Below the pieces are notes generated by a model that made no database searches, was not told the DNA's origin, and saw only the letters and a list, made by a program, of their open reading frames with translations. A stretch of 64,000 nt of DNA, from contig JACPMZ010000007.1 in the NCBI GenBank assembly GCA_016185705.1, positions 107,157-171,156 of the forward strand, in the 5' to 3' direction. Positions 1,592 through 55,622 of the stretch are shown piece by piece. The stretch comes from Candidatus Woesearchaeota archaeon. GTDB taxonomy: Archaea > Nanobdellota > Nanobdellia > Woesearchaeales > UBA10216. The translations under genes and the position numbers were made by a program. Positions within the stretch are counted from its first letter, which is position 1, and each line of letters starts with the position of its first letter.

Positions 1592-2512
1592 TTACTGGTA
1601 AAGCGGTTTCAAAGTTTCACGCACATCTCTTTCAAAACCAGCTCTCGTTGCCTCAGCAACATGCCTCTGACCAGCACCCAGAACAACATTAACAACCTGC
1701 TCAAGCGTAGGCCTAACCAACTGCCCTCCATCAGCGCGCTGCGCCTCCGGCGCTACCCCGACGAAACGCCCATCATCATAGATGACCCTGCCGAAGAGGC
1801 CATCAAAATTGCTGCCGAGGTACACCAGGCGCCCCTTAGCTTGAGCGTCAAAGCCAGCTTCATTGATTCTGTGATAGCTTCCAATATTGCTCCAACCTTC
1901 TCCGCCATCTTCTTTTCTACCAAAGAGCATTTTAGCCAATGCTTCCCTGTTATCAGGAGAACCTACAATCATAAGCACTCGGTCATCCCTCATGAAAGCA
2001 TCATACATTAATTGACCACTGCCATTGATGTTGGCTTTGTCTTTGTCCAATCGTGTAAAAGCAGTATAAGGAGTTCCTGCTGCAGGCACACGGCCTTTCT
2101 TAACGTCATCAAGATGGATTCTTGCAACATCCTGACCGTTGTAATTGCCTTTTCCGACAGCAACCCATTCGTCGTCATCAATCTGCATAAATGTATATTG
2201 TCCAGCTTTGGAAAATACTTTTTCCAGTCCTTCTGGAGTTGCAAAAGACCCTGCTGAATGCCATGTTTCATAAGAACGGTCGCCATCACGCTGACCATGA
2301 TATTCGCCAGTTATTGTGTCTACCCAATCAGGTCTGATTGCCTCACGAACCTCAGGATGATTAGCCATAGCTTGTATTGCCATCGGCATGTCAGCTACTT
2401 TTAAGCCATATTCTGTAGCCAATTTATCGGCCTCTTTTCGAGCATTGACATAGCCAGTCTGATCTGTAACTGCTGCGAGTACAGGGGATTTTATTTGCAC
2501 AATTTGTGACAT
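1592..2512 (-). CDS. Hypothetical protein (306 aa)
   Basis: Long ORF with a GGAGG RBS 7 nt upstream of the ATG; no recognisable motifs. Confidence 0.5.
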   Translation of the reverse strand: MSQIVQIKSPVLAAVTDQTGYVNARKEADKLATEYGLKVADMPMAIQAMANHPEVREAIRPDWVDTITGEYHGQRDGDRSYETWHSAGSFATPEGLEKVFSKAGQYTFMQIDDDEWVAVGKGNYNGQDVARIHLDDVKKGRVPAAGTPYTAFTRLDKDKANINGSGQLMYDAFMRDDRVLMIVGSPDNREALAKMLFGRKEDGGEGWSNIGSYHRINEAGFDAQAKGRLVYLGSNFDGLFGRVIYDDGRFVGVAPEAQRADGGQLVRPTLEQVVNVVLGAGQRHVAEATRAGFERDVRETLKPLYQ

Positions 2513-12965: not shown

Positions 12966-14255
12966 ATGCCAGAATTTATGAGTGTTATCCCAGTAACCAT
13001 TAAGGAAATGCAACGAGATTCTACATGGGACTTTGCTACTGCTGATACTAAGGAATTTACTCATTGCTTCCATTCTTATCCTGCCATGATGATTCCACAA
13101 GTTGCTAGAAAAATGCTGAAAATTTATGGGAAACAGGATAGCTCACTCATTGACCCTTTTATGGGTAGCGGCTCGGTTCTTGTTGAAGGGATGCTACACG
13201 AACCTATCACTAGCGCTTATGGATTAGATATAAATCCTTTGGCTATTTTAATAGCAAAAACTAAAACTACACCAATCAAACCGCAACTTTTGGAAAACAC
13301 GTTTTCTAAAATTTTGTCTGAATTTGATAAAAAAAAGAACACTGATCTTGGTTTCTATAATCTAACTAACATTAAATACTGGTTTAAAGAGCAAGCTATT
13401 AATGACTTATCCAGACTTAAAAGTTCAATTGATGAGGTAGATAACGGCAAGATTAAAAATTTCTTTCTGGTTTGTTTTTCAGAAACAACTCGTAAAGTAT
13501 CAAATACCCGTCCAGGTGAATTCAAGCTATACCGGATTAATGAAAAGAAGTTAGCCAATTATTTGCCAAATACCCTTGAGGTATTTACCCATGTTGTTAA
13601 GCGCAATATCAAAGGTATGCACTCATTTTATAGCGCATTCAACTATTTAGACAAAAAAACTGCCATAAATATTTACAAGGAAGACAGCCGAACAAAGACG
13701 TCAATCCCTTCGGAATCTTGTGACATTTTGGTGACTTCACCACCATACGGAGATTCAAGAACCACTGTAGCTTATGGGCAGTACAGCAGATTAAGCTCGC
13801 AATTATTGGGATATTCTTATGACGAAATAAGGCGGGTGGACCAGAACGGTTTAGGAGGAAAGCGCTCATATAAAGAAAACAATCTTGATTCGCCGCACCT
13901 GCAATCTGCATTGGATAAAATATCTGCGGCTGATGAAATTCGTGCTTTAGATGTGCTTGCTTTTTATGAAGATTTCAATAAGTGCATAACCGAAATAGAT
14001 CGTATTATGAAACCTAATTCACATCTTTGTTTTGTTGTCGGCAACAGAACTGTCAAAGGAGTAAAAATCCTAACTAACGCCATAATCGCAGAATTGTTTG
14101 AGTCTAGAGAAAACTATTCTCATTTGAAAACGATAATCAGAAAAATACCAAATAAGAAAATGCCTAAAATCAATAGTCCAACTAACGTAAAAGGCGTTAC
14201 AGGGCAAACAATGGATGAAGAATACCTCCTAATTCTTAAAAAGCTTAATTGCTAA
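12966..14255 (+). CDS. DNA methyltransferase of a type II R-M system, probably N4-cytosine-specific (motif I DPFMGSGS, motif IV TSPPYGD)
   Basis: FxGxG before SPPY with about 170 aa between them (alpha-class order); strong SD TAAGGAGGT; low-GC island. Confidence 0.8.
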   Translation: MPEFMSVIPVTIKEMQRDSTWDFATADTKEFTHCFHSYPAMMIPQVARKMLKIYGKQDSSLIDPFMGSGSVLVEGMLHEPITSAYGLDINPLAILIAKTKTTPIKPQLLENTFSKILSEFDKKKNTDLGFYNLTNIKYWFKEQAINDLSRLKSSIDEVDNGKIKNFFLVCFSETTRKVSNTRPGEFKLYRINEKKLANYLPNTLEVFTHVVKRNIKGMHSFYSAFNYLDKKTAINIYKEDSRTKTSIPSESCDILVTSPPYGDSRTTVAYGQYSRLSSQLLGYSYDEIRRVDQNGLGGKRSYKENNLDSPHLQSALDKISAADEIRALDVLAFYEDFNKCITEIDRIMKPNSHLCFVVGNRTVKGVKILTNAIIAELFESRENYSHLKTIIRKIPNKKMPKINSPTNVKGVTGQTMDEEYLLILKKLNC

Positions 14256-14537: not shown

Positions 14538-15245
14538 CTACATTATCTGTTTTCTATGGCTGAAGCATAATTCCAACTTATCTGGAAGCACTCTAAATGC
14601 GGTGCCGTGATCGTGCGTTCTTCCGTTAGAATACTGGCCAATTCTGATATCAACCATTATTGTCCCTTCTTTCAGAAGGTTTAAAAAATTTTCAAAATCA
14701 AAGCCATTCAATAGCCAAGTTTCGTTAAACCAAAACATCTCTTGTTTACCGTCCCCGTTTACATCTGCTTTTACGTACATCAGTCTTGGAAGCTTTCGCT
14801 CAAAAGATTCTCTTAAAGTATTTTTGTCCCAATAACCAAATGATTTCCCATCTGGCGTCACTAGCTCTATTTTGTTGGTACTAATTTTAATCTTAAATCC
14901 TGGTTTGCCTTTCAAATTATTGAAATCAACAGCATTTACTGTTGAATGCAACTTCTTTTTGTTATTGCCTTTTGCAGATGGATAACCAAATTGTTTCAGC
15001 AACAAAGAATTAGCCTTTGGCGGCAAGGGAGATTTTGTAAACAGAGTAAGCAAGCTCTTAGTGTGCTTCCTAGTAGACTTAAGCTCAAGCATTAGACCAT
15101 TTGGGCCAGGCACATTATTTTCCTTTATTTTCAGTTCATCCTCCAAAGTTTTTCCAATACCAGTATTTCCAGCTCTATGCGTCTTAATATATCCCAAATC
15201 TTTAAGTCGCTTCAAATCCTGCACAAGCGCAGCATAACCGATCAT
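14538..15245 (-). CDS. Type II restriction endonuclease, MvaI/BcnI-like (from-memory resemblance)
   Basis: Convergent partner of the MTase; segments GNTGIGKTLEDELKIKENNV, LLTLFTKSP, HDHGTAFRV resemble BcnI/MvaI as recalled. Confidence 0.5.
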   Translation of the reverse strand: MIGYAALVQDLKRLKDLGYIKTHRAGNTGIGKTLEDELKIKENNVPGPNGLMLELKSTRKHTKSLLTLFTKSPLPPKANSLLLKQFGYPSAKGNNKKKLHSTVNAVDFNNLKGKPGFKIKISTNKIELVTPDGKSFGYWDKNTLRESFERKLPRLMYVKADVNGDGKQEMFWFNETWLLNGFDFENFLNLLKEGTIMVDIRIGQYSNGRTHDHGTAFRVLPDKLELCFSHRKQIM

Positions 15246-19379: not shown

Positions 19380-20307
19380 TTGCGTAGACGTAAGTAGCGT
19401 AAATTCTGGACGGCTTGAATTTCTGCTTGAACTGCAGCAGCGGCTTTGGGCTTCCGCCAAAGTCAACCTCGCTGTATCCCATTTTTTTCAGTGTTACAAG
19501 ATCATTCCAGTTGGCATACTCGCCAAGGCATTCTATCCTGCTGTCATAAATGCCAACCGCCGAATAATATGCGCCTAAAGCGTTGGGAACATTCCAGCCG
19601 GCGGTGATGCTCGCAACTTTGCCGTCCACCAAAACACTTTTGGCAAGATTGCAGCCTGCAAAATCCAGGTCAATGAATTTATTGTAAAAATCAGTATCAG
19701 TATAGTTTGAGTTTTTGCGGTGTACATAGTATCCTGTAACCCTGCGGCGCAGCTTCCATTCCTCCACAACAGCCTTTAGGTCATCCTTCTCCACGCTGCT
19801 GCTGTCCACAATTCTAATCCTGTGCGACTTCCTGAACCTGTTGAGAATGTTTCTCATCTTCTTCCACAGCCCGCCCCGGAGCTTATCCCCCTCCCAGCCA
19901 GTCATATCGTAAACAGGCCAATACAAAACGCAGTTTGGATCGCTTATTTTGTAAGATGAACTGACAGCATCGTCAACAATTTTTTTCCTGTCCATAGTAA
20001 GCTCGGCAACAAACTTGTTCAGCTTTCTTTTCTGCTTCAGAAAATCCAGTGCTTCCCTGACCAGCTGCGCCTGCTGGGCTTCCGGCGCAAGCGGAGCGCC
20101 AATCATGCTCCATTTTTTTGCAGCAGCGTTATTTATTGTAAGAAGGCCGTATTTACCTTCCCTAATGTAGATGCACTCATCACCCTTTAGTTCAACGGCA
20201 TTATGCGCAAGATAGTAGCCGAAATTATGCTCAGGAGCGCTGCCATAGGCTGCAACAGCGCTTTCTATCAGCCTGCGTTCGCTTTCAATGTCTTCAATCA
20301 GCTCCAT
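19366..20307 (-). CDS. DUF2156 / MprF C-terminal-like (aminoacyl-tRNA-dependent transferase fold) protein, paralog 1
   Basis: 313 aa; C-terminal VDFGGSP...FKQKFKP motif resembles LPG-synthase C domain; 3' end overlaps ileS by 14 nt. Confidence 0.5.
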   Translation of the reverse strand: MELIEDIESERRLIESAVAAYGSAPEHNFGYYLAHNAVELKGDECIYIREGKYGLLTINNAAAKKWSMIGAPLAPEAQQAQLVREALDFLKQKRKLNKFVAELTMDRKKIVDDAVSSSYKISDPNCVLYWPVYDMTGWEGDKLRGGLWKKMRNILNRFRKSHRIRIVDSSSVEKDDLKAVVEEWKLRRRVTGYYVHRKNSNYTDTDFYNKFIDLDFAGCNLAKSVLVDGKVASITAGWNVPNALGAYYSAVGIYDSRIECLGEYANWNDLVTLKKMGYSEVDFGGSPKPLLQFKQKFKPSRIYATYVYAITKK

Positions 20308-21235
20308 TTTTCACCAGCGAATAACTTTTTTTTATCAGATGCGGCCTGTACGACCTCTTTATGCGCTCAAGGTACTTAACGTCCCAGTCCTCGCCTGCGT
20401 TGACGTACTCACAGTCAAACAGCTTCATAAGCTCGCCGTAGATAAATACTGAAAGCCCCTTGATGCGCAGGTTTGTCTTCTCAAAAAAATCCGTGCAGAT
20501 TATGCTGCTTGTTCGCTCTGCAAAGCTGTAGCCCTGCACCTTGCCGTCAACCAGCACAACCACGCCTTTAAGGCCAAGCGTGTTTGCAAGCTCCAGCGCT
20601 CTTTCATTGGCGGCAACCTCTGCATCAAGCTTCTCCACGTCAGCATCCTCAATTGTTTCGAGTTTCTGCTCTTTCCAGCGGTGAAGCAAATCAAGGCAGC
20701 CTGCCCTGTGCCTGCCAGCGTTGTACTGCTCAACAGCGCAGGAATAGTTTTTCATAAAATAATTTTTAAGATTCCTCTTGCTCTTATAACTGTCTCCTTT
20801 AAGCTCAATGATGTCTGTCCTTTTGTATATGTAGTCCTGGTTCTGCTCCTGCAGCTTAAAGCCGCTGAGGTTTGCGTATGCGTCCTTAAGCTCCTCAGGA
20901 ATGTACATCATGGCAGGATTTTCCGGAATCCCGCGCTCTGCGTTGTAATCCTCGCACATGCTGAAGCACCTGCCCAGAGTGTCAGCGAGCTTTTTTCCGG
21001 GAACAACGGGCCCCCAGATGCAGCGTTTGCCCTCAAAAGTCAGGAACAGGCACAGATTGCCGTTTATCAAAGCCCATTCCATTTCGCCATAACAGCCATC
21101 CCACAGATAAAGCCACGCAAAGCTGTGCTCCGCCAAAGGAAACTGAAGCGAGCCATAAGCTTTGTCAAAAATTTTTTTGTCAGCTGGAGCGAGCTTTTGC
21201 ATTTGACTGAGTATTTGCATCTTTTTTGCCTTCAA
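20294..21235 (-). CDS. DUF2156 / MprF C-terminal-like protein, paralog 2
   Basis: 313 aa; VNAGEDWDVKYLERIKRSYRP C-terminal motif; tandem with paralog 1, 14-nt overlap. Confidence 0.5.
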   Translation of the reverse strand: MKAKKMQILSQMQKLAPADKKIFDKAYGSLQFPLAEHSFAWLYLWDGCYGEMEWALINGNLCLFLTFEGKRCIWGPVVPGKKLADTLGRCFSMCEDYNAERGIPENPAMMYIPEELKDAYANLSGFKLQEQNQDYIYKRTDIIELKGDSYKSKRNLKNYFMKNYSCAVEQYNAGRHRAGCLDLLHRWKEQKLETIEDADVEKLDAEVAANERALELANTLGLKGVVVLVDGKVQGYSFAERTSSIICTDFFEKTNLRIKGLSVFIYGELMKLFDCEYVNAGEDWDVKYLERIKRSYRPHLIKKSYSLVKNGAD

Positions 21236-38300: not shown

Positions 38301-38472
38301 TTGTTTTTTCTATTGCATGTCAGTAGGGCAATGCTGTTCTTAACAGCAACGGCTTTGCAAGCAGAGGGGAAGCAAAAAGAAATCTGGAGATATTTAAAAT
38401 GCTGCACAAGTTGGCGTAAGAATGCGGGCAGCGGAAATCCGATGGTTTCCTGGTCTGCATTTAGTTCGTAAA

Positions 38473-38569
38473 TGCGGGGGACGTGATTCGAACACGCGCA
38501 ACCACTAAGGTACAGGATTGCTTCTGAAACTTAAGTCCTGCGCTTTTGACCAGACTCAGCCACCCCCGC
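38473..38569 (-). tRNA. tRNA-Leu (anticodon UAA) with putative 11-nt intron at canonical 37/38 position
   Basis: 7-bp acceptor GCGGGGG/CCCCCGC, 3-bp D-stem, anticodon stem CAGGA/TCCTG, long variable arm, T-arm GCGTG-TTCGAAT-CACGT. Confidence 0.6.
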
Positions 38570-38792
38570 ATAGCGGCATTGCTTCAGGCATTGTTTATAA
38601 ATTTTTGTGGTGTGTGAAGTCAGCTCCTCAAGTATCTGCCTTTATCCTGCCAACTCAAATTCCAATCCCCCAACTCAATTTCACGCTGCGCTGCTTTTTT
38701 TCCCTCCCCTAAAATTTAAGGGGAGGAAAAAAAGCAGCGGGGACCCTTACATTTGCGAAAGTCTAATAAGCCAGTGCAGTAATTGTGTGTGA

Positions 38793-39810: not shown

Positions 39811-39893
39811 GCCTCTGTAGCTCAGTGGTGGAGCGTTACCTTGGTATCCATACAAAAAGGTAGAGGTCGCGGGTCCAATTCCCGCCAGAGGCT
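39811..39893 (+). tRNA. tRNA-Thr (anticodon GGU) with putative 11-nt intron at 37/38
   Basis: Acceptor GCCTCTG/CAGAGGC, D-arm GCTC-AGTGGTG-GAGC, anticodon stem TTACC/GGTAG, T-arm GCGGG-TCCAATT-CCCGC. Confidence 0.6.
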
Positions 39894-41905: not shown

Positions 41906-41990
41906 GGGCCTGTGATCTAGCGGCTATGATGCTTCCTTGACTTGGAAGATGTCCCCAGTTCGAAACAAAGCGAGAGTCTGGGCGGGCCCA
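41906..41990 (+). tRNA. tRNA-Val (anticodon GAC)-like gene with 12-nt insertion after T-loop position 60
   Basis: Acceptor GGGCCTG/CGGGCCC, anticodon stem CTTCC/GGAAG, loop TTGACTT (U37 unusual), T-stem CCCAG/CTGGG split by CAAAGCGAGAGT. Confidence 0.4.
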
Positions 41991-49124: not shown

Positions 49125-49410
49125 GCAGGCCCTTGTATTTAAGCCGGGTTGCCTTTATGTGGCCACAAAGCACGGGCTTGACTTTCAAAGACCACGCCCA
49201 AACACGGACGTGACTTTGAAAGGTTACGCCGGGACTGGGACATACTCACTGCGGTTCGTAGCCCCAGTCCCGGCTCTGTTCGCTTCGCTCACTACGCCGG
49301 GACTGGGACTTTCATTGACTCTGATGTTGTTCAGCCAGTCTTTTTTGAACCCAGACACCCTTAACGGGAACAGCCTCACTTGATTGTTCCAGGGCTGCGC
49401 GATGCCAGAT
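49125..49410 (-). ncRNA. Candidate structured ncRNA; carries RNase P RNA-like motifs GAAAGUCC (5' region) and AACCCGGCUUA (3' region)
   Basis: GC-rich, ORF-poor, 12-bp hairpins, 17-nt direct repeat; motif order and strand fit RNase P RNA P4 strands but the fold is not confirmed. Confidence 0.25.
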
Positions 49411-49760
49411 TACGCGATCCCGGCACAGGCATAAGCTGTTTGGCAGTTTATTTAAATGTGATGATTTGGGCGGGGTTGTTGCGAAAACAGCTTTTCATGC
49501 CCGCTGCTGTTCACTTTATCCAAACTTCTTTTATTTCTCACAGCGATAATTAGGGGGAGAAGAAAAGAAGCTGAACTAAGCTTTGGCACAATTGACCTAT
49601 AGGAAATAACCTTAATTTTCGTATGTTTTGAAATGATTGCAAGGTTATTTCCTAATAAGCAAATCACCTATTCGTTAGGAACAAAATTCCGATTATTAAA
49701 GTGATTTGCTATAATTACGCAACAACCCCTATTCGTATAATGAAAAAATGTTCCAATAAA

Positions 49761-52103: not shown

Positions 52104-52149
52104 GCAATTTACTTATGCTTTGAGATTTATAAGCTTAGCCCCAAAAAAG

Positions 52150-52262
52150 CCGGAAGATATCCGGAACTTCCGAAAATTGTCCGGGCGGTTTAAAAACTTT
52201 CTGCCGAAAATTACGGCGAAAACCGGAAGATTTCCGGCTTTTCCGCAAAGTTTCCGGAAAAA
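52150..52262. promoter_or_regulatory. Three spaced palindromic CCGGAA-n5-TTCCGG-type sites in a divergent promoter region
   Basis: GCCGGAAGATATCCGGAA, ACCGGAAGATTTCCGGCT, TTTCCGGAAA at about 37-bp spacing. Confidence 0.4.
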
Positions 52263-52305
52263 ACAGGGCAAGGCATATTAATCCTAAAAACAAAAAAGAA
52301 GATGT

Positions 52306-52471
52306 GCCGGCGTTGGATAGTTTGGTAAGCCGCTGAGTTAAGAGCTCAGTGCCTGTAAAGGCTCCGGGGTTCAAATACTTTTCGGTTTTGCCGCTGGGTT
52401 GGAATTGTCAGAAATCAAAGATTTCTGAACATGGTCAGGAATCTTCGATTCCAGACATCCCCTCGCCGGCG
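52306..52471 (+). ncRNA. tRNA-like element (type II, Leu/Ser-like) with about 86-nt insertion after T-loop position 60
   Basis: Perfect 7-bp terminal pairing GCCGGCG/CGCCGGC, anticodon-like hairpin CTGAG-TTAAGAG-CTCAG, variable-arm hairpin GCCT-GTAA-AGGC, GGGG-TTCAAAT T-arm half. Confidence 0.3.
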
Positions 52472-52482
52472 CGTTACTTAAA

Positions 52483-53685
52483 ATGATGCTGGAAATTTTG
52501 GCGGCAGTGGCAATTGGAATCGTATTGGGCATATTTACGGGCTTGATTCCAGGCGTTCATGTTAATTTAGTAGCGGCAGTTATGCTAACTATTTCTCCTT
52601 TTCTGCTTCAGCACTTTTCGCCGTTGTCGCTGGCAGCAGCGATTATTGCAATGTCCATCACGCATGTATTCCTTGACTTTGTTCCGTCAATTTTTCTGGG
52701 TGCGCCGAGCGATGCTACTGCGCTTGCCGTGCTGCCCGGGCATCGGCTGTTGCTGCAGGGCAGGGGTTATGAAGCTGTGTTTTTGTCTGCGGTTGGCGGG
52801 TTTTTTGGAGTGGCTGCAATTGTCGGGCTTCTGCCGCTTATAATTCTGGCTGTGAAGCAAATTTTTGCGTTTGTAAGCCCGCATATCGGATTGATACTGC
52901 TGGGCATAGTCTTGTACAATATTGTCCGCGAAAAAGGATTCGCAAACAGGTTTTGGAGTTTTGCCGTAATTGCCCTGGCAGGAATGCTTGGAGTTTTAAC
53001 ACTAAGCATTCCCAACCTGGAGCAGCCGCTTCTTCCGCTGCTGGCAGGGCTGTTCGGGATAAGCACGCTGATGGCAGGCACCATGAGGCATGCTGCAGTG
53101 CCGATACAGCTTTTGGAAATAAAAGCAATGAATAAAGCTGCAGTAGCCAAATCAGTTGCAGCAGGAAGCTTTGCAGGCGGGCTGATGGGCATATTTCCTG
53201 CATTAGGCCCTGCGCAGGCAAGCATGCTTGCCCGCGATTTAATAGGCAAAGCAGGAAACAGGACGTATCTGGTGACGTTAGGCGCTGTAAGCACCTCATC
53301 AATGCTATTCGGGCTTGTAACGCTGTTCACAATCAACAAAGCAAGGAACGGCTCAATAGCAATGATGGCTGAGCTTGTCGCTGTCGGCAAAACAGAATTT
53401 ATTTTTTTAATAGCAGCAGCAGTAGCAGCAAGCGGAGCAGCATTAATTCTGACAATTGCCATCGGCAAATTCTTTGCAATGAACATACACAGAATCAGCT
53501 ACGAATACATCTCCTGCGCAATAATCTTTCTGATAGCTGCAATGACATTTTACTTCTCACAGCTGACAGGGCTGATAATACTTGTTACAGGCACAGCCAT
53601 AGGGCTGCTGGCAATAACAAAAAACGTAGCAAGGCACAACCTGATGAGCTGCCTTATGATGCCGGTGATATTTTATTATCTGTGA
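52483..53685 (+). CDS. TctA-family (DUF112) membrane transporter subunit
   Basis: GxxxGxIPGV motifs, about 10 TM helices, 400 aa. Confidence 0.65.
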   Translation: MMLEILAAVAIGIVLGIFTGLIPGVHVNLVAAVMLTISPFLLQHFSPLSLAAAIIAMSITHVFLDFVPSIFLGAPSDATALAVLPGHRLLLQGRGYEAVFLSAVGGFFGVAAIVGLLPLIILAVKQIFAFVSPHIGLILLGIVLYNIVREKGFANRFWSFAVIALAGMLGVLTLSIPNLEQPLLPLLAGLFGISTLMAGTMRHAAVPIQLLEIKAMNKAAVAKSVAAGSFAGGLMGIFPALGPAQASMLARDLIGKAGNRTYLVTLGAVSTSSMLFGLVTLFTINKARNGSIAMMAELVAVGKTEFIFLIAAAVAASGAALILTIAIGKFFAMNIHRISYEYISCAIIFLIAAMTFYFSQLTGLIILVTGTAIGLLAITKNVARHNLMSCLMMPVIFYYL

Positions 53686-53838
53686 CTGCTGCGCAGCTTA
53701 CTGCCTCTGTCCTTTGCTCTCAGCATATGCGGATAGGAAGAAAAAGTGCAAAAGCTGCGCCAGGAAATAAGCGCAGAGTCATCTGGCTTTGGAGACTCTC
53801 CAATAATTATTTAAATAACTTCTGAACAGCAATGCCTT

Positions 53839-54096
53839 ATGGAAGGCACAATATCAAACTTCAGAAGAGGGCGCCACACTATTCATACAAGCCAGATGAT
53901 AGTGCAAGTCAAGGGCGTTGACACCAAAGAAAAAGCAGCTGAACTTCTCGGCAAAGCCGTTGTATGGACGTCTCCGGCCAAAAAAGAGCTGAAGGGAAAA
54001 ATTATCGCTGCCCATGGCAGCAGCGGCGCGGTAAGAGCAAAGTTTGAAACCGGAATGCCCGGCCAGGCTGTTTCCCAGAAAGTCAGGATTGAATAA
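53839..54096 (+). CDS. rpl35ae: 50S ribosomal protein L35Ae
   Basis: ISNFRRGRHTIHTSQMIVQVKG...HGSSGAVRAKF signature. Confidence 0.8.
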   Translation: MEGTISNFRRGRHTIHTSQMIVQVKGVDTKEKAAELLGKAVVWTSPAKKELKGKIIAAHGSSGAVRAKFETGMPGQAVSQKVRIE

Positions 54097-54939
54097 TTAC
54101 GCTAATTTAACCCCGCCGCTGGGCAAAGCCCTTATGATTTCGTCAAGCTCTCCACCAATCCTATGCTGAATTTTTTTTGCGGCTGCAGAGGTTTTTTCGC
54201 TGCCCTGCCTTATCTCCACAAAATTTTTGCACTGCTTTCTGACAGCAGCGACCGGGCCGCACATAATTGAGCCATCATCAGCCATTCCAACTGCCAGTTT
54301 CAATTCAGCAAGCATATCAGCTGTTTTCCCCTTAATTATAAACGAGCCCTTTTCCAGGTATTCTCCGGGCTTAGGGGATCGCGATAACTGTTCAGGCTTA
54401 ACATAAAAAACGTCTGCATGCGACAATCCAAGCTTCCAAGCCCTTGAAAATGCAGCGGTTGCAATGGCAGCTTCCTCCAGCGTATTCTGACCAACCTTTT
54501 TGTTCTCAGCCTTGACAACAAAGAAGGGCGAGCCCTGCATCTGCGCATGAAAAACAATGTCATTATTTTCAGCGTGCTTCTTAACAACAATCTCATTCGT
54601 AGCAGCGTCCCGGCCGCCAACGCACAGAAAGCCCTCGCTTGAAACAAACCACCTGAACTTTTCATACCACTTCTTTTCCCTGGCGCTTTTACCGGATTTT
54701 TCAACAGCAGCAAGCCCCTTTTTTTGCAACAACAGCTCCAGCTGCTGCTGACTCTTTTCCAGAGCCTTCTCAGCGCCAGCAAGCTTTCTTTTGGCTTTTT
54801 TGGCAGCTTCAAAGTAAGATGCAGCGTTTTCATCAATTGTTTTGCGAATGTCTAAACTAATTTCCATAGCTGATAAAACTGCGGAGCGCTTTATAATTTT
54901 TTCTGCATGAGGTGGGGAAATTAATCCTGCACCAGCCAT
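54097..54939 (-). CDS. NFACT-family protein with DUF814 (NFACT-R) domain
   Basis: Coiled-coil N-terminus; VGGRDAATNE and IVFHAQMQGSPFFVVK motifs. Confidence 0.6.
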   Translation of the reverse strand: MAGAGLISPPHAEKIIKRSAVLSAMEISLDIRKTIDENAASYFEAAKKAKRKLAGAEKALEKSQQQLELLLQKKGLAAVEKSGKSAREKKWYEKFRWFVSSEGFLCVGGRDAATNEIVVKKHAENNDIVFHAQMQGSPFFVVKAENKKVGQNTLEEAAIATAAFSRAWKLGLSHADVFYVKPEQLSRSPKPGEYLEKGSFIIKGKTADMLAELKLAVGMADDGSIMCGPVAAVRKQCKNFVEIRQGSEKTSAAAKKIQHRIGGELDEIIRALPSGGVKLA

Positions 54940-55019
54940 TTATTTAATGAACCATTCTGAAACCCCTTTAACGCAATACAACCCAATATACAAACGTTTA
55001 TAAACATCCCAGCTTTTGC

Positions 55020-55622
55020 ATGCATAAAATGTTAATGGAAGTGGAGAAAATGGAGGAGCGCGAAGTTAAAAGGTCCCGGGAAGAGCATGCAATAGTGCTT
55101 GATTTCCTGCCGAACGGCTATCCGTTCCAAAGCAGGCCGGGACAGATGAGCATGCCCATAGTGCAAGCTCTCGGAAAAGAGCACATGATACTGTTGGAAC
55201 TGGTTCCCAAGAAGGATGTAAAGCTCCAGCCCCACGAGGAAGTCTACATAGGCGAGGGCAAGCGCGAGCAAATCCATCACATAAACGGAAAGCTCGCTCC
55301 TGAAAAGCTGACTTCAACAGCAAAAGCCGAGCTGGAATTTGTAGTAATGAACCTTGTCAGGAAAAAGGAGAAAGATTTCATAGACTTCTTTAATAAAGCC
55401 CAGCCGTTAAGCACAAGAATGCACAGCATTGAACTGATCCCAGGCATGGGCAAGAAAAGAATGTGGGAAATCCTGGATGAACGGCAAACAAAGCCATTTG
55501 AAAGCTTTGCGGACTTCAAAAAGCGCGTAAAGCTGCTGCCTGACATAGAAAAAAGCATCATACGCAGAATAATGCTGGAAATAACCACAGAGCAGAAGCA
55601 CTACCTTTTTGTGGACAGATAA
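55020..55622 (+). CDS. DUF655-family RNA-binding protein
   Basis: HAIVLDFLPNGYP...VYIGEGKREQIHHINGKL pattern. Confidence 0.6.
   Translation: MHKMLMEVEKMEEREVKRSREEHAIVLDFLPNGYPFQSRPGQMSMPIVQALGKEHMILLELVPKKDVKLQPHEEVYIGEGKREQIHHINGKLAPEKLTSTAKAELEFVVMNLVRKKEKDFIDFFNKAQPLSTRMHSIELIPGMGKKRMWEILDERQTKPFESFADFKKRVKLLPDIEKSIIRRIMLEITTEQKHYLFVDR

Follow-up and report, generated by a model that had tools for sequence, protein, structure and literature searches.

A putative class II tRNA gene with a composite T-loop intron ahead of a TctA-family gene in a Woesearchaeota archaeon

The 64-kb stretch of Candidatus Woesearchaeota archaeon contig JACPMZ010000007.1 that was analysed here (the window) contains, at positions 52306-52471 of the forward strand, a segment with the arms of a tRNA in which the two halves of the T arm are widely separated. 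The question raised by this locus is whether it is a tRNA gene and, if so, how the interruption would be removed and which amino acid the product would accept. An earlier sequence-only reading had considered a tRNA with a large non-canonical intron, a tRNA-derived small RNA and a leader of the adjacent TctA-like gene. The analysis described below suggests that the locus is probably a class II tRNA gene, split between T-loop positions 59 and 60 by a bulge-helix-bulge (BHB) intron, and a member of a family whose known members all come from Woesearchaeota-type DPANN archaea. Coordinates of the principal features are collected in Table 1.

Architecture of the locus and its relatives

Direct reading of the segment revealed all of the stems and loops that had previously been named. 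The acceptor stem is a perfect 7-bp pairing between GCCGGCG (52306-52312) and CGCCGGC (52464-52470), with G52471 as the discriminator and no encoded CCA. The D stem, GGAT/AGCC (52315-18/52328-31), has one A.G mismatch and encloses the loop AGTTTGGTA, in which A14, G18, G19 and A21 are present. This is followed by an anticodon arm (CTGAG-TTAAGAG-CTCAG, 52333-52349) with the anticodon AAG at 52340-52342, a variable arm (GCCT-GTAA-AGGC, 52351-52362) and one half of a T arm, CGGGG-TTCAAAT (52365-52376), whose partner CCCC(T) is located at 52459-52463. TTCAAAT and CCCC are separated by 82 nt, as opposed to the approximately 86 nt given earlier; this stretch contains both of the hairpins described for it, at 52408-52428 and 52438-52452. 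In-silico removal of 52376-52457 yields an 85-nt class II tRNA, called as Leu(AAG) by ARAGORN, with a complete cloverleaf, a 7-nt T loop and 23 of the 25 pairs formed. None of 200 shuffled sequences folds as stably as the segment (z = -4.6). A tRNA on the reverse strand was rejected, since the order of its arms would be wrong and the T loop missing.

Scanning of 185,579 species genomes with a degenerate D-arm/anticodon-loop pattern identified one true homolog, in a Woesearchaeota metagenome-assembled genome (L003); its anticodon is CAG, and its T loop is interrupted at the same place by 27 nt. The other match (L002) is bacterial and spurious. In metagenomes, a first pattern comprising the tRNA body and a variable gap gave no matches. 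A second pattern, spanning the exon-intron junction, gave eight true loci, seven of them distinct (L006, L007, which equals L018, L008, L015, L019, L020 and L021); 10 of the 18 metagenome matches and all three IMG/VR matches were chance matches within coding DNA. The relatives from these scans are all class II with G73. Further copies were found by synteny, the gene order Kae1, OB-fold protein, tRNA slot, TctA, L35Ae, NFACT, DUF655 being kept in relatives; a look-up of the OB-fold protein itself gave no record. The slot in L026/L027, reached via TctA homologs, holds an orthologous class II tRNA with the anticodon AAG and a 30-nt intron, and that in L037 holds a class II copy (1802-1993) with perfect cloverleaf stems and a 107-nt T-loop intron, which forms three or four hairpins unrelated to the window insertion described below. 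In L022-24 the slot is occupied by a G73 tRNA of another kind, whose T-loop intron is 18 nt long, and in P0010 and P0018, which were also looked up, it has no tRNA. Altogether, the same tRNA body with an intron at the 59/60 site was found at ten further loci of Woesearchaeota genomes and metagenomes. The introns of nine of the ten are 27-43 nt long, and the BHB is canonical in eight of these nine.

Alignment of nine spliced sequences revealed pairing in 97.3% of cells, with 15 of the 25 cloverleaf pairs changed on both sides. The observed covariation was matched in none of 500 shuffles, and sliding the partner strand by one column reduced pairing to 45-47%. The nine non-window pre-tRNAs show covariation likewise, the BHB central helix included, and the compensatory changes cover all five cloverleaf helices, including the D arm. 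A covariance model (R1) built from these nine pre-tRNAs matches the window over exactly 52306-52471, with 86.1 bits and E ~2e-16; thus the locus is found by a model derived from the copies of other organisms.

In the eight members outside the TctA slot the outer helix of the BHB is the T stem and the central helix is complete (4/4): U54 U55 C56 A57 pairs with UGAA, UGGA or UGAG two bases ahead of U60, with an inner helix made by the conserved ACUUUUCGG. Since the two bulges read A58 A59|N and N N|U60, the intron sits at 59/60, a refinement of the earlier placement of the insert after T-loop nucleotide 60. In the window, the corresponding intron part (TACTTTTCGGTTTTGCCGCTGGGTTGGAAT) is identical at 28 of 30 positions to the L008 intron and homologous to those of L019, L021, L003 and L026. 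It carries the inner helix, and its TGGA (52400-52403) forms the central helix with the T-loop TTCA (52370-52373), flanked by the 3-nt bulges AAT (52374-76) and ATT (52404-06). Once the cloverleaf stems are enforced, this BHB and the two hairpins form in the window pre-tRNA fold ahead of the T-stem 3' strand. The members found also have in common a 5' intron sequence, ACTTTTCGGTT, which sets the family apart from archaeal introns at large; the search pattern had demanded it for eight of them, but L026 and L037, identified through synteny, also retain it, almost fully and in part, respectively. The idea of a large non-canonical T-arm intron in a type II tRNA has thereby gained support from the introns of relatives, from covariation and from the BHB within the ancestral intron part.

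The window intron is a composite of this 30-nt family intron and a 52-nt tandem double hairpin that is specific to the window. The extra bases (52406-52457) are located exactly at the old 3' cut site, where CCCC follows directly in relatives, and consist of two diverged 26-nt tandem units, such that three 3'-splice-like motifs of the form UGRA-NN|U occur 26 nt apart (52400-06, 52426-32 and 52452-58). Unit A, with the core stem TCAGAAATC-AAA-GATTTCTGA (52408-52428), has no counterpart in any relative; its end, UGAA-CA|U, is a copy of the family 3' splice motif and would pair 4/4 with the T loop. Unit B contains the hairpin GGAATC-TTC-GATTCC and ends in CAGA-CA|U, which makes two of four pairs with the T-loop TTCA. 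A dispersed or mobile repeat was considered and rejected, as searches of the window, allowing up to 3 mismatches, and of IMG/VR gave no further copies. Window positions 52404-55117 are reproduced without mismatch by an independent Logan assembly of run SRR12113383, and since this stretch spans the full 52 nt, the insertion is not an artefact of one assembler. The Logan contig (L001) begins at 52404, 2 nt ahead of the insertion, a break that could reflect alleles with and without it, or low coverage.

Table 1. Positions of the candidate tRNA locus, its neighbours and the other tRNA genes of the window
Feature	Position	Strand	Basis
Predicted promoter: TCCGG, 18-nt spacer, TATA-like box CATATTAA (52274-52281)	52253-52281	+	alignment of six family loci
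Whole locus, putative class II tRNA gene with T-loop intron	52306-52471	+	
Putative exon 1, tRNA positions 1-59: acceptor 5' strand, D arm, anticodon arm, long variable arm, T-stem 5' strand, T-loop TTCAAA	52306-52375	+	ARAGORN on spliced product, covariation, covariance-model match
Family ('ancestral') intron part, 30 nt, TACTTTTCGGTTTTGCCGCTGGGTTGGAAT	52376-52405	+	homology to relatives' introns, BHB scan
Hairpin unit A, TGTCAGAAATC-AAA-GATTTCTGAACA	52406-52431	+	9-bp perfect stem, folds as hairpin
Hairpin unit B, TGGTCAGGAATC-TTC-GATTCCAGACA	52432-52457	+	diverged tandem copy of unit A
Putative exon 2: U60, T-stem 3' strand CCCCT, acceptor 3' strand CGCCGGC, discriminator G73	52458-52471	+	
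TctA-family membrane protein gene	52483-53685	+	Pfam TctA, E = 8e-49; begins 11 nt past the tRNA
tRNA-Leu(UAA), canonical, A73, ~11-nt anticodon-loop mini-intron	38472-38570	-	Rfam
tRNA-Thr(GGU), U73 (not Val), ~11-nt anticodon-loop mini-intron	39811-39893	+	Rfam
tRNA-Val(GAC), A73, 12-nt intron acaaagcgagag in T loop at 59/60	41906-41990	+	ARAGORN after splicing
tRNA-Ser(GGA), G73, 35-nt T-loop intron at 59/60 and ~10-nt anticodon-loop intron	49295-49424	-	ARAGORN after splicing

Expression and splicing of the window copy

The TATA-like box lies approximately 25-32 nt ahead of the tRNA 5' end, and its TATTAA core is invariant across the six aligned family loci. The arrangement TYCGG-N18-TATTAA is common to the family tRNA genes and directly precedes TctA where the slot is empty; the OB-fold gene, which is divergent, is served by a mirror copy. 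Canonical tRNA genes in these genomes have TTTAWAWA boxes with no CGG element. No separate TctA promoter was found between the tRNA and TctA and, with 11 nt from the tRNA end to the TctA ATG, a joint transcript is probable. The region between the OB-fold gene and the tRNA/TctA unit (52126-52281) was also seen to contain four CCGGAA...TTCCGG-type palindromes (52150-64, 52170-84, 52223-37 and 52243-57) in two 39-nt direct repeats. Palindrome-type matches number 12 in this region against 3.1 expected, a count that none of 100 shuffles reached, and TCCGG stands exactly 18 nt ahead of the TATA box in each of the two promoters. The region looks like an operator for some regulator, one common to family tRNA genes elsewhere.

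Under the reading of the locus as a split tRNA gene, transcription would start from the TATA box some 30 nt upstream, jointly with TctA; the splicing endonuclease EndA would cut after A59 (52375) and before U60 (52458), and the RtcB ligase would join the exons. With the insertion lying between the canonical 3' motif and exon 2, splicing of the window copy is uncertain and would need either an endonuclease of relaxed specificity or stepwise trimming via the repeated UGRA-NN|U motifs; failing these, splicing would be poor. The chance that a mature tRNA is still made is put at close to even, or marginally below it.

Several observations count against a functional split gene. Although the BHB is canonical in its 5' bulge, central helix (TTCA/TGGA) and inner helix, this intact motif is 52 nt upstream of exon 2, its 3' bulge being removed by that distance, and a cut there would leave the hairpins in the T loop; directly next to exon 2 stands a degenerate motif with two of four central pairs. 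The unspliced locus elicits no tRNA call from ARAGORN, with or without intron mode, and no match to Rfam RF00005 at the gathering threshold or at E <= 10, Rfam returning only weak miRNA-like noise. Two stem mismatches, A12.G23 and C49.U65, have no counterpart in relatives. The slot is empty in six related genomes (L025, L031, L032, L033, L034 and L038), indicating that the window copy is dispensable. Finally, no EndA or RtcB gene was found within the window.

The most serious rival is that the locus is an inactivated relic, in which the 52-nt insertion at the 3' junction has killed splicing and the copy is decaying in a dispensable slot. This is rather unlikely, although several observations speak for it. 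The 3' BHB motif is eroded in all three class II slot copies (2/4 pairs in the window, 3/4 in L026 and 1/4 in L037) whereas all eight members outside the slot retain it intact (4/4); no other copy has as many stem mismatches as that of the window; position 37 of L037 is a pyrimidine (C); and the slot is variously empty or, in L022-24, filled by a different tRNA. Set against decay are the 23 of 25 pairs, U33, A37, the 7-nt loops and the promoter, all intact in the window copy, and an AAG anticodon that the window has in common with L026. In addition, the slot orthologs, whose TctA neighbours are 68% identical to that of the window, differ in their exons by compensatory changes (G7-C66 versus C7-G66; GCCU/AGGC versus GUCU/AGAC), and the stems of L037 are perfect despite its 107-nt intron, indicating that the structure has stayed under selection.

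Alternatively, the cloverleaf might serve as RNase P/RNase Z punctuation, or as a stability element, at the 5' end of the TctA mRNA, in which case decoding and splicing would be irrelevant and the anticodon and intron free to drift. The suggestion of a TctA leader holds true as regards position, since the tRNA follows the promoter and precedes the TctA start codon by 11 nt, and relatives without the tRNA have the same promoter directly before TctA. Slot copies do vary in anticodon (AAG, AAG, GAA and GAC/AAC) and in intron length (30, 82, 107 and 18 nt). However, family members elsewhere adjoin PCNA, lysyl-tRNA synthetase, L21e and aIF5A genes, some of them convergent, as opposed to TctA, and U33, A37 and the 7-nt anticodon loop are conserved. 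RNase P recognises the tRNA elbow, which an unspliced T loop would disrupt. A leader function in place of a tRNA is accordingly improbable, although such a role may be additional to that of a tRNA. No evidence was found for a separate tRNA-derived small RNA.

A tRNA-like fold arising by chance in an intergenic region rich in hairpins, for which it could be said that the unconstrained minimum-energy fold is not a cloverleaf and that lax BHB scans yield many chance hits, is refuted for practical purposes by the model score (E = 2e-16), the covariation in all helices and the syntenic orthologs. The same scans, which give dozens of such hits, also returned a second, nested intron with a full BHB (cuts at 52405|52406 and 52455|52456); it would leave a 9-nt T loop at a cost of approximately 10 kcal/mol, and was rejected as one of these chance matches.

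Identity elements and anticodons

The 'Leu/Ser style' assigned to the locus beforehand can be resolved into a serine-like body (G73, A37) with a leucine anticodon, AAG. G73 is present in 11 of 11 class II family members and A37 in all but L037; U33, A37 and a 7-nt anticodon loop are conserved in the family, the loop of L008 having 8 nt. Serine and leucine synthetases do not read the anticodon. Family anticodons comprise AAG (window, L026), CAG (L003, L019, L021), GAG (L007), GAA (L006, L037), GAC (L015) and GCC (L020), and no serine anticodon (NGA or GCU) was found among the family members. Three of the metagenome loci, L006 (996-1115, GAA), L015 (1325-1445, GAC) and L020 (102-223, GCC), are class II genes with G73 and canonical BHB introns; their stems are perfect or almost so, and they are located in housekeeping surroundings (L21e/DUF655, aIF5A/M50 peptidase).

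In Haloferax, A73 and bases of the variable loop constitute leucine identity and G73 is an antideterminant for leucyl-tRNA synthetase (LeuRS; PMC9976931), and archaeal seryl-tRNA synthetase depends on the long arm and G73 (PMC7609411). The candidate resembles canonical archaeal tRNA-Leu, represented in the window by Leu(UAA), in being class II and in an anticodon that belongs to the leucine CUN box. It lacks the remaining features of that tRNA, namely A73, G37, the acceptor GCGGGGG, the long D loop (GGTCAAA), the variable loop TTAGT and the T loop TTCGAAT; where tRNA-Leu needs A47c and G47d, the variable loop is GTAA in the window and GNRA or variable in relatives. Canonical tRNA-Ser genes, by contrast (window 49295-49424(-), L022 4082-4223 and L026 8015-8127), resemble the candidate in class, G73, the acceptor GCCGG..., the D loop AATCTGG.A, the T loop TTCAAAT, A37 and the 59/60 intron. 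They differ in anticodon (NGA/GCU as opposed to AAG), in having a D stem of 3 rather than 4 bp and in the variable arm, which in the candidate has 4 bp and a tetraloop, and overall identity is approximately 58-60%. The window tRNA-Ser(GGA) is the closest canonical relative of the family. Indeed, the best non-family matches of the family covariance model are tRNA-Ser (53-61 bits), and the model gave no tRNA-Leu match at E <= 1 in relatives or E <= 10 in the window. By known archaeal rules, then, the tRNA has the appearance of one that accepts serine but has an anticodon for leucine (CUU).

Reassignment of CUU/CUG to serine was examined and rejected: alignment of TctA places these codons in Leu/Ile/Val/Phe columns, with almost no Ser. 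CUN codons are abundant, and the genetic code is unchanged, with CUU and CUG still at leucine positions. Avoidance of CUC, expected if an unmodified A34 tRNA were the sole reader of CUY, was not seen (CTC 150 versus CTT 378). No TadA/ADAT-type deaminase motif was found in the DNA examined, a result rated as uninformative. Genes for tRNAs with A34 have been reported to be absent in Archaea (PMC11066159). Here A34 recurs, as AAG in two syntenic orthologs (window and L026) and as AAC in one of the L022-24 slots. In the latter case L022 (7267-7357) and L024 (749-839), near-identical strains with an identical TctA protein, have slot tRNAs that differ only at position 34, the anticodon loops being TTGACAC (GAC) and TTAACAC (AAC), a G34/A34 polymorphism. 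This tRNA has G73, the 18-nt T-loop intron and a C3.U70 mismatch; L022 also holds a canonical A73 tRNA-Val(GAC) at 1956-2043(-).

The family could comprise G73 tRNA-Leu(CUN) species for a divergent LeuRS, serine-charged missense tRNAs, or molecules of which translation makes no use. It is proposed, very tentatively and as a doubtful rather than a favoured possibility, that Woesearchaeota possess serine-identity class II tRNAs with Leu, Phe, Val and Gly anticodons and their own promoter type, which would be natural missense or non-standard tRNAs, the window and L026 copies being genuine A34 genes. If true, Archaea would have their equivalent of the allo-tRNAs of bacteria and the nev-tRNAs of nematodes. 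Allo-tRNAs (Mukai et al. 2017, PMC5389517) likewise combine a Ser/Sec-like body and serine elements with non-serine anticodons, including those for Leu, Phe and Val. However, they have 8/4 or 9/3 acceptor/T-stem architectures, are intronless and are often located near toxin-antitoxin genes, whereas the family has a 7/5 architecture, a T-loop intron and housekeeping neighbourhoods, and so lies outside the 8/4 or 9/3 definition. Nematode nev-tRNAs (Hamashima et al. 2012, PMC3333845) and the tRNA-Ser(CAG) of CUG-clade yeasts (PMC6041473) are also class II molecules with an anticodon that does not match the amino acid of the body; these are eukaryotic and their charging (with Leu and Ser, respectively) has been shown experimentally, whereas the present family is known from sequence. 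None of these nearest precedents is archaeal. Should the family tRNAs be charged and used, they would be the first such family in Archaea, with a bearing on the fidelity of the code.

Other split tRNA genes and genomic context

Archaeal BHB introns at non-canonical sites, cut by EndA and including T-loop 59/60 among their positions, occur in Thermoproteales, ARMAN/Micrarchaeota and other DPANN lineages. DPANN archaea are reported to have many disrupted tRNA genes and an EndA of broad specificity (PMC5829648, PMC3239211), and tRNA sets that look incomplete to standard tools (PMC5829648). The window gene would belong to this known kind by homology and by the 5' half of its motif: its intron interrupts the T loop rather than the anticodon loop, with the T stem as outer helix, a central helix of 4 bp and bulges of 3 nt. 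As with other such introns, several may occur per gene (the window tRNA-Ser has two) and standard finders miss them. What differs is the 52-nt tandem hairpin at the 3' cut site, which holds the motif off exon 2. This junctional tandem-hairpin insertion is new, as is the combination of a Ser-like G73 body with A34 and non-serine anticodons. An insertion at a BHB cut site, in which every tandem unit closes with a copy of the 3' motif, offers a natural test of endonuclease relaxation in DPANN archaea, and bears also on how archaeal tRNA introns grow.

A junction-aware scan of the window revealed two further genes with T-loop introns, tRNA-Val and tRNA-Ser (Table 1), both of which were missed by ARAGORN and Rfam before intron removal. 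The insertion remarked upon earlier in the nearby tRNA-Val is indeed small and at the same T-loop place. Introns at 59/60 are thus common in this organism. Owing to them, three of the five tRNA genes of the window (Val, Ser and the candidate) are invisible to ARAGORN and Rfam, so that the 'incomplete tRNA sets' described for DPANN archaea are at least partly a detection artefact.

The window (45.8% G+C) encodes Kae1, L35Ae, NFACT, DUF655, a proteasome subunit, aCPSF1/FttA, isoleucyl- and threonyl-tRNA synthetases and deoxyhypusine synthase, and the DNA is archaeal. Its TctA protein has 100% identity to an NCBI protein assigned to Candidatus Woesearchaeota archaeon. Among its other genes, 20294-21220(-) encodes a 308-aa protein that matches the C-terminal domain of phosphatidylglycerol lysyltransferase (E = 5e-26), an MprF-like aminoacyl-tRNA-dependent transferase that is a possible non-ribosomal consumer of aminoacyl-tRNA in a small genome. 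A restriction-modification pair is also present, comprising a DNA methylase-like gene at 12966-14255(+) and an MvaI/BcnI-family endonuclease gene at 14538-15245(-).
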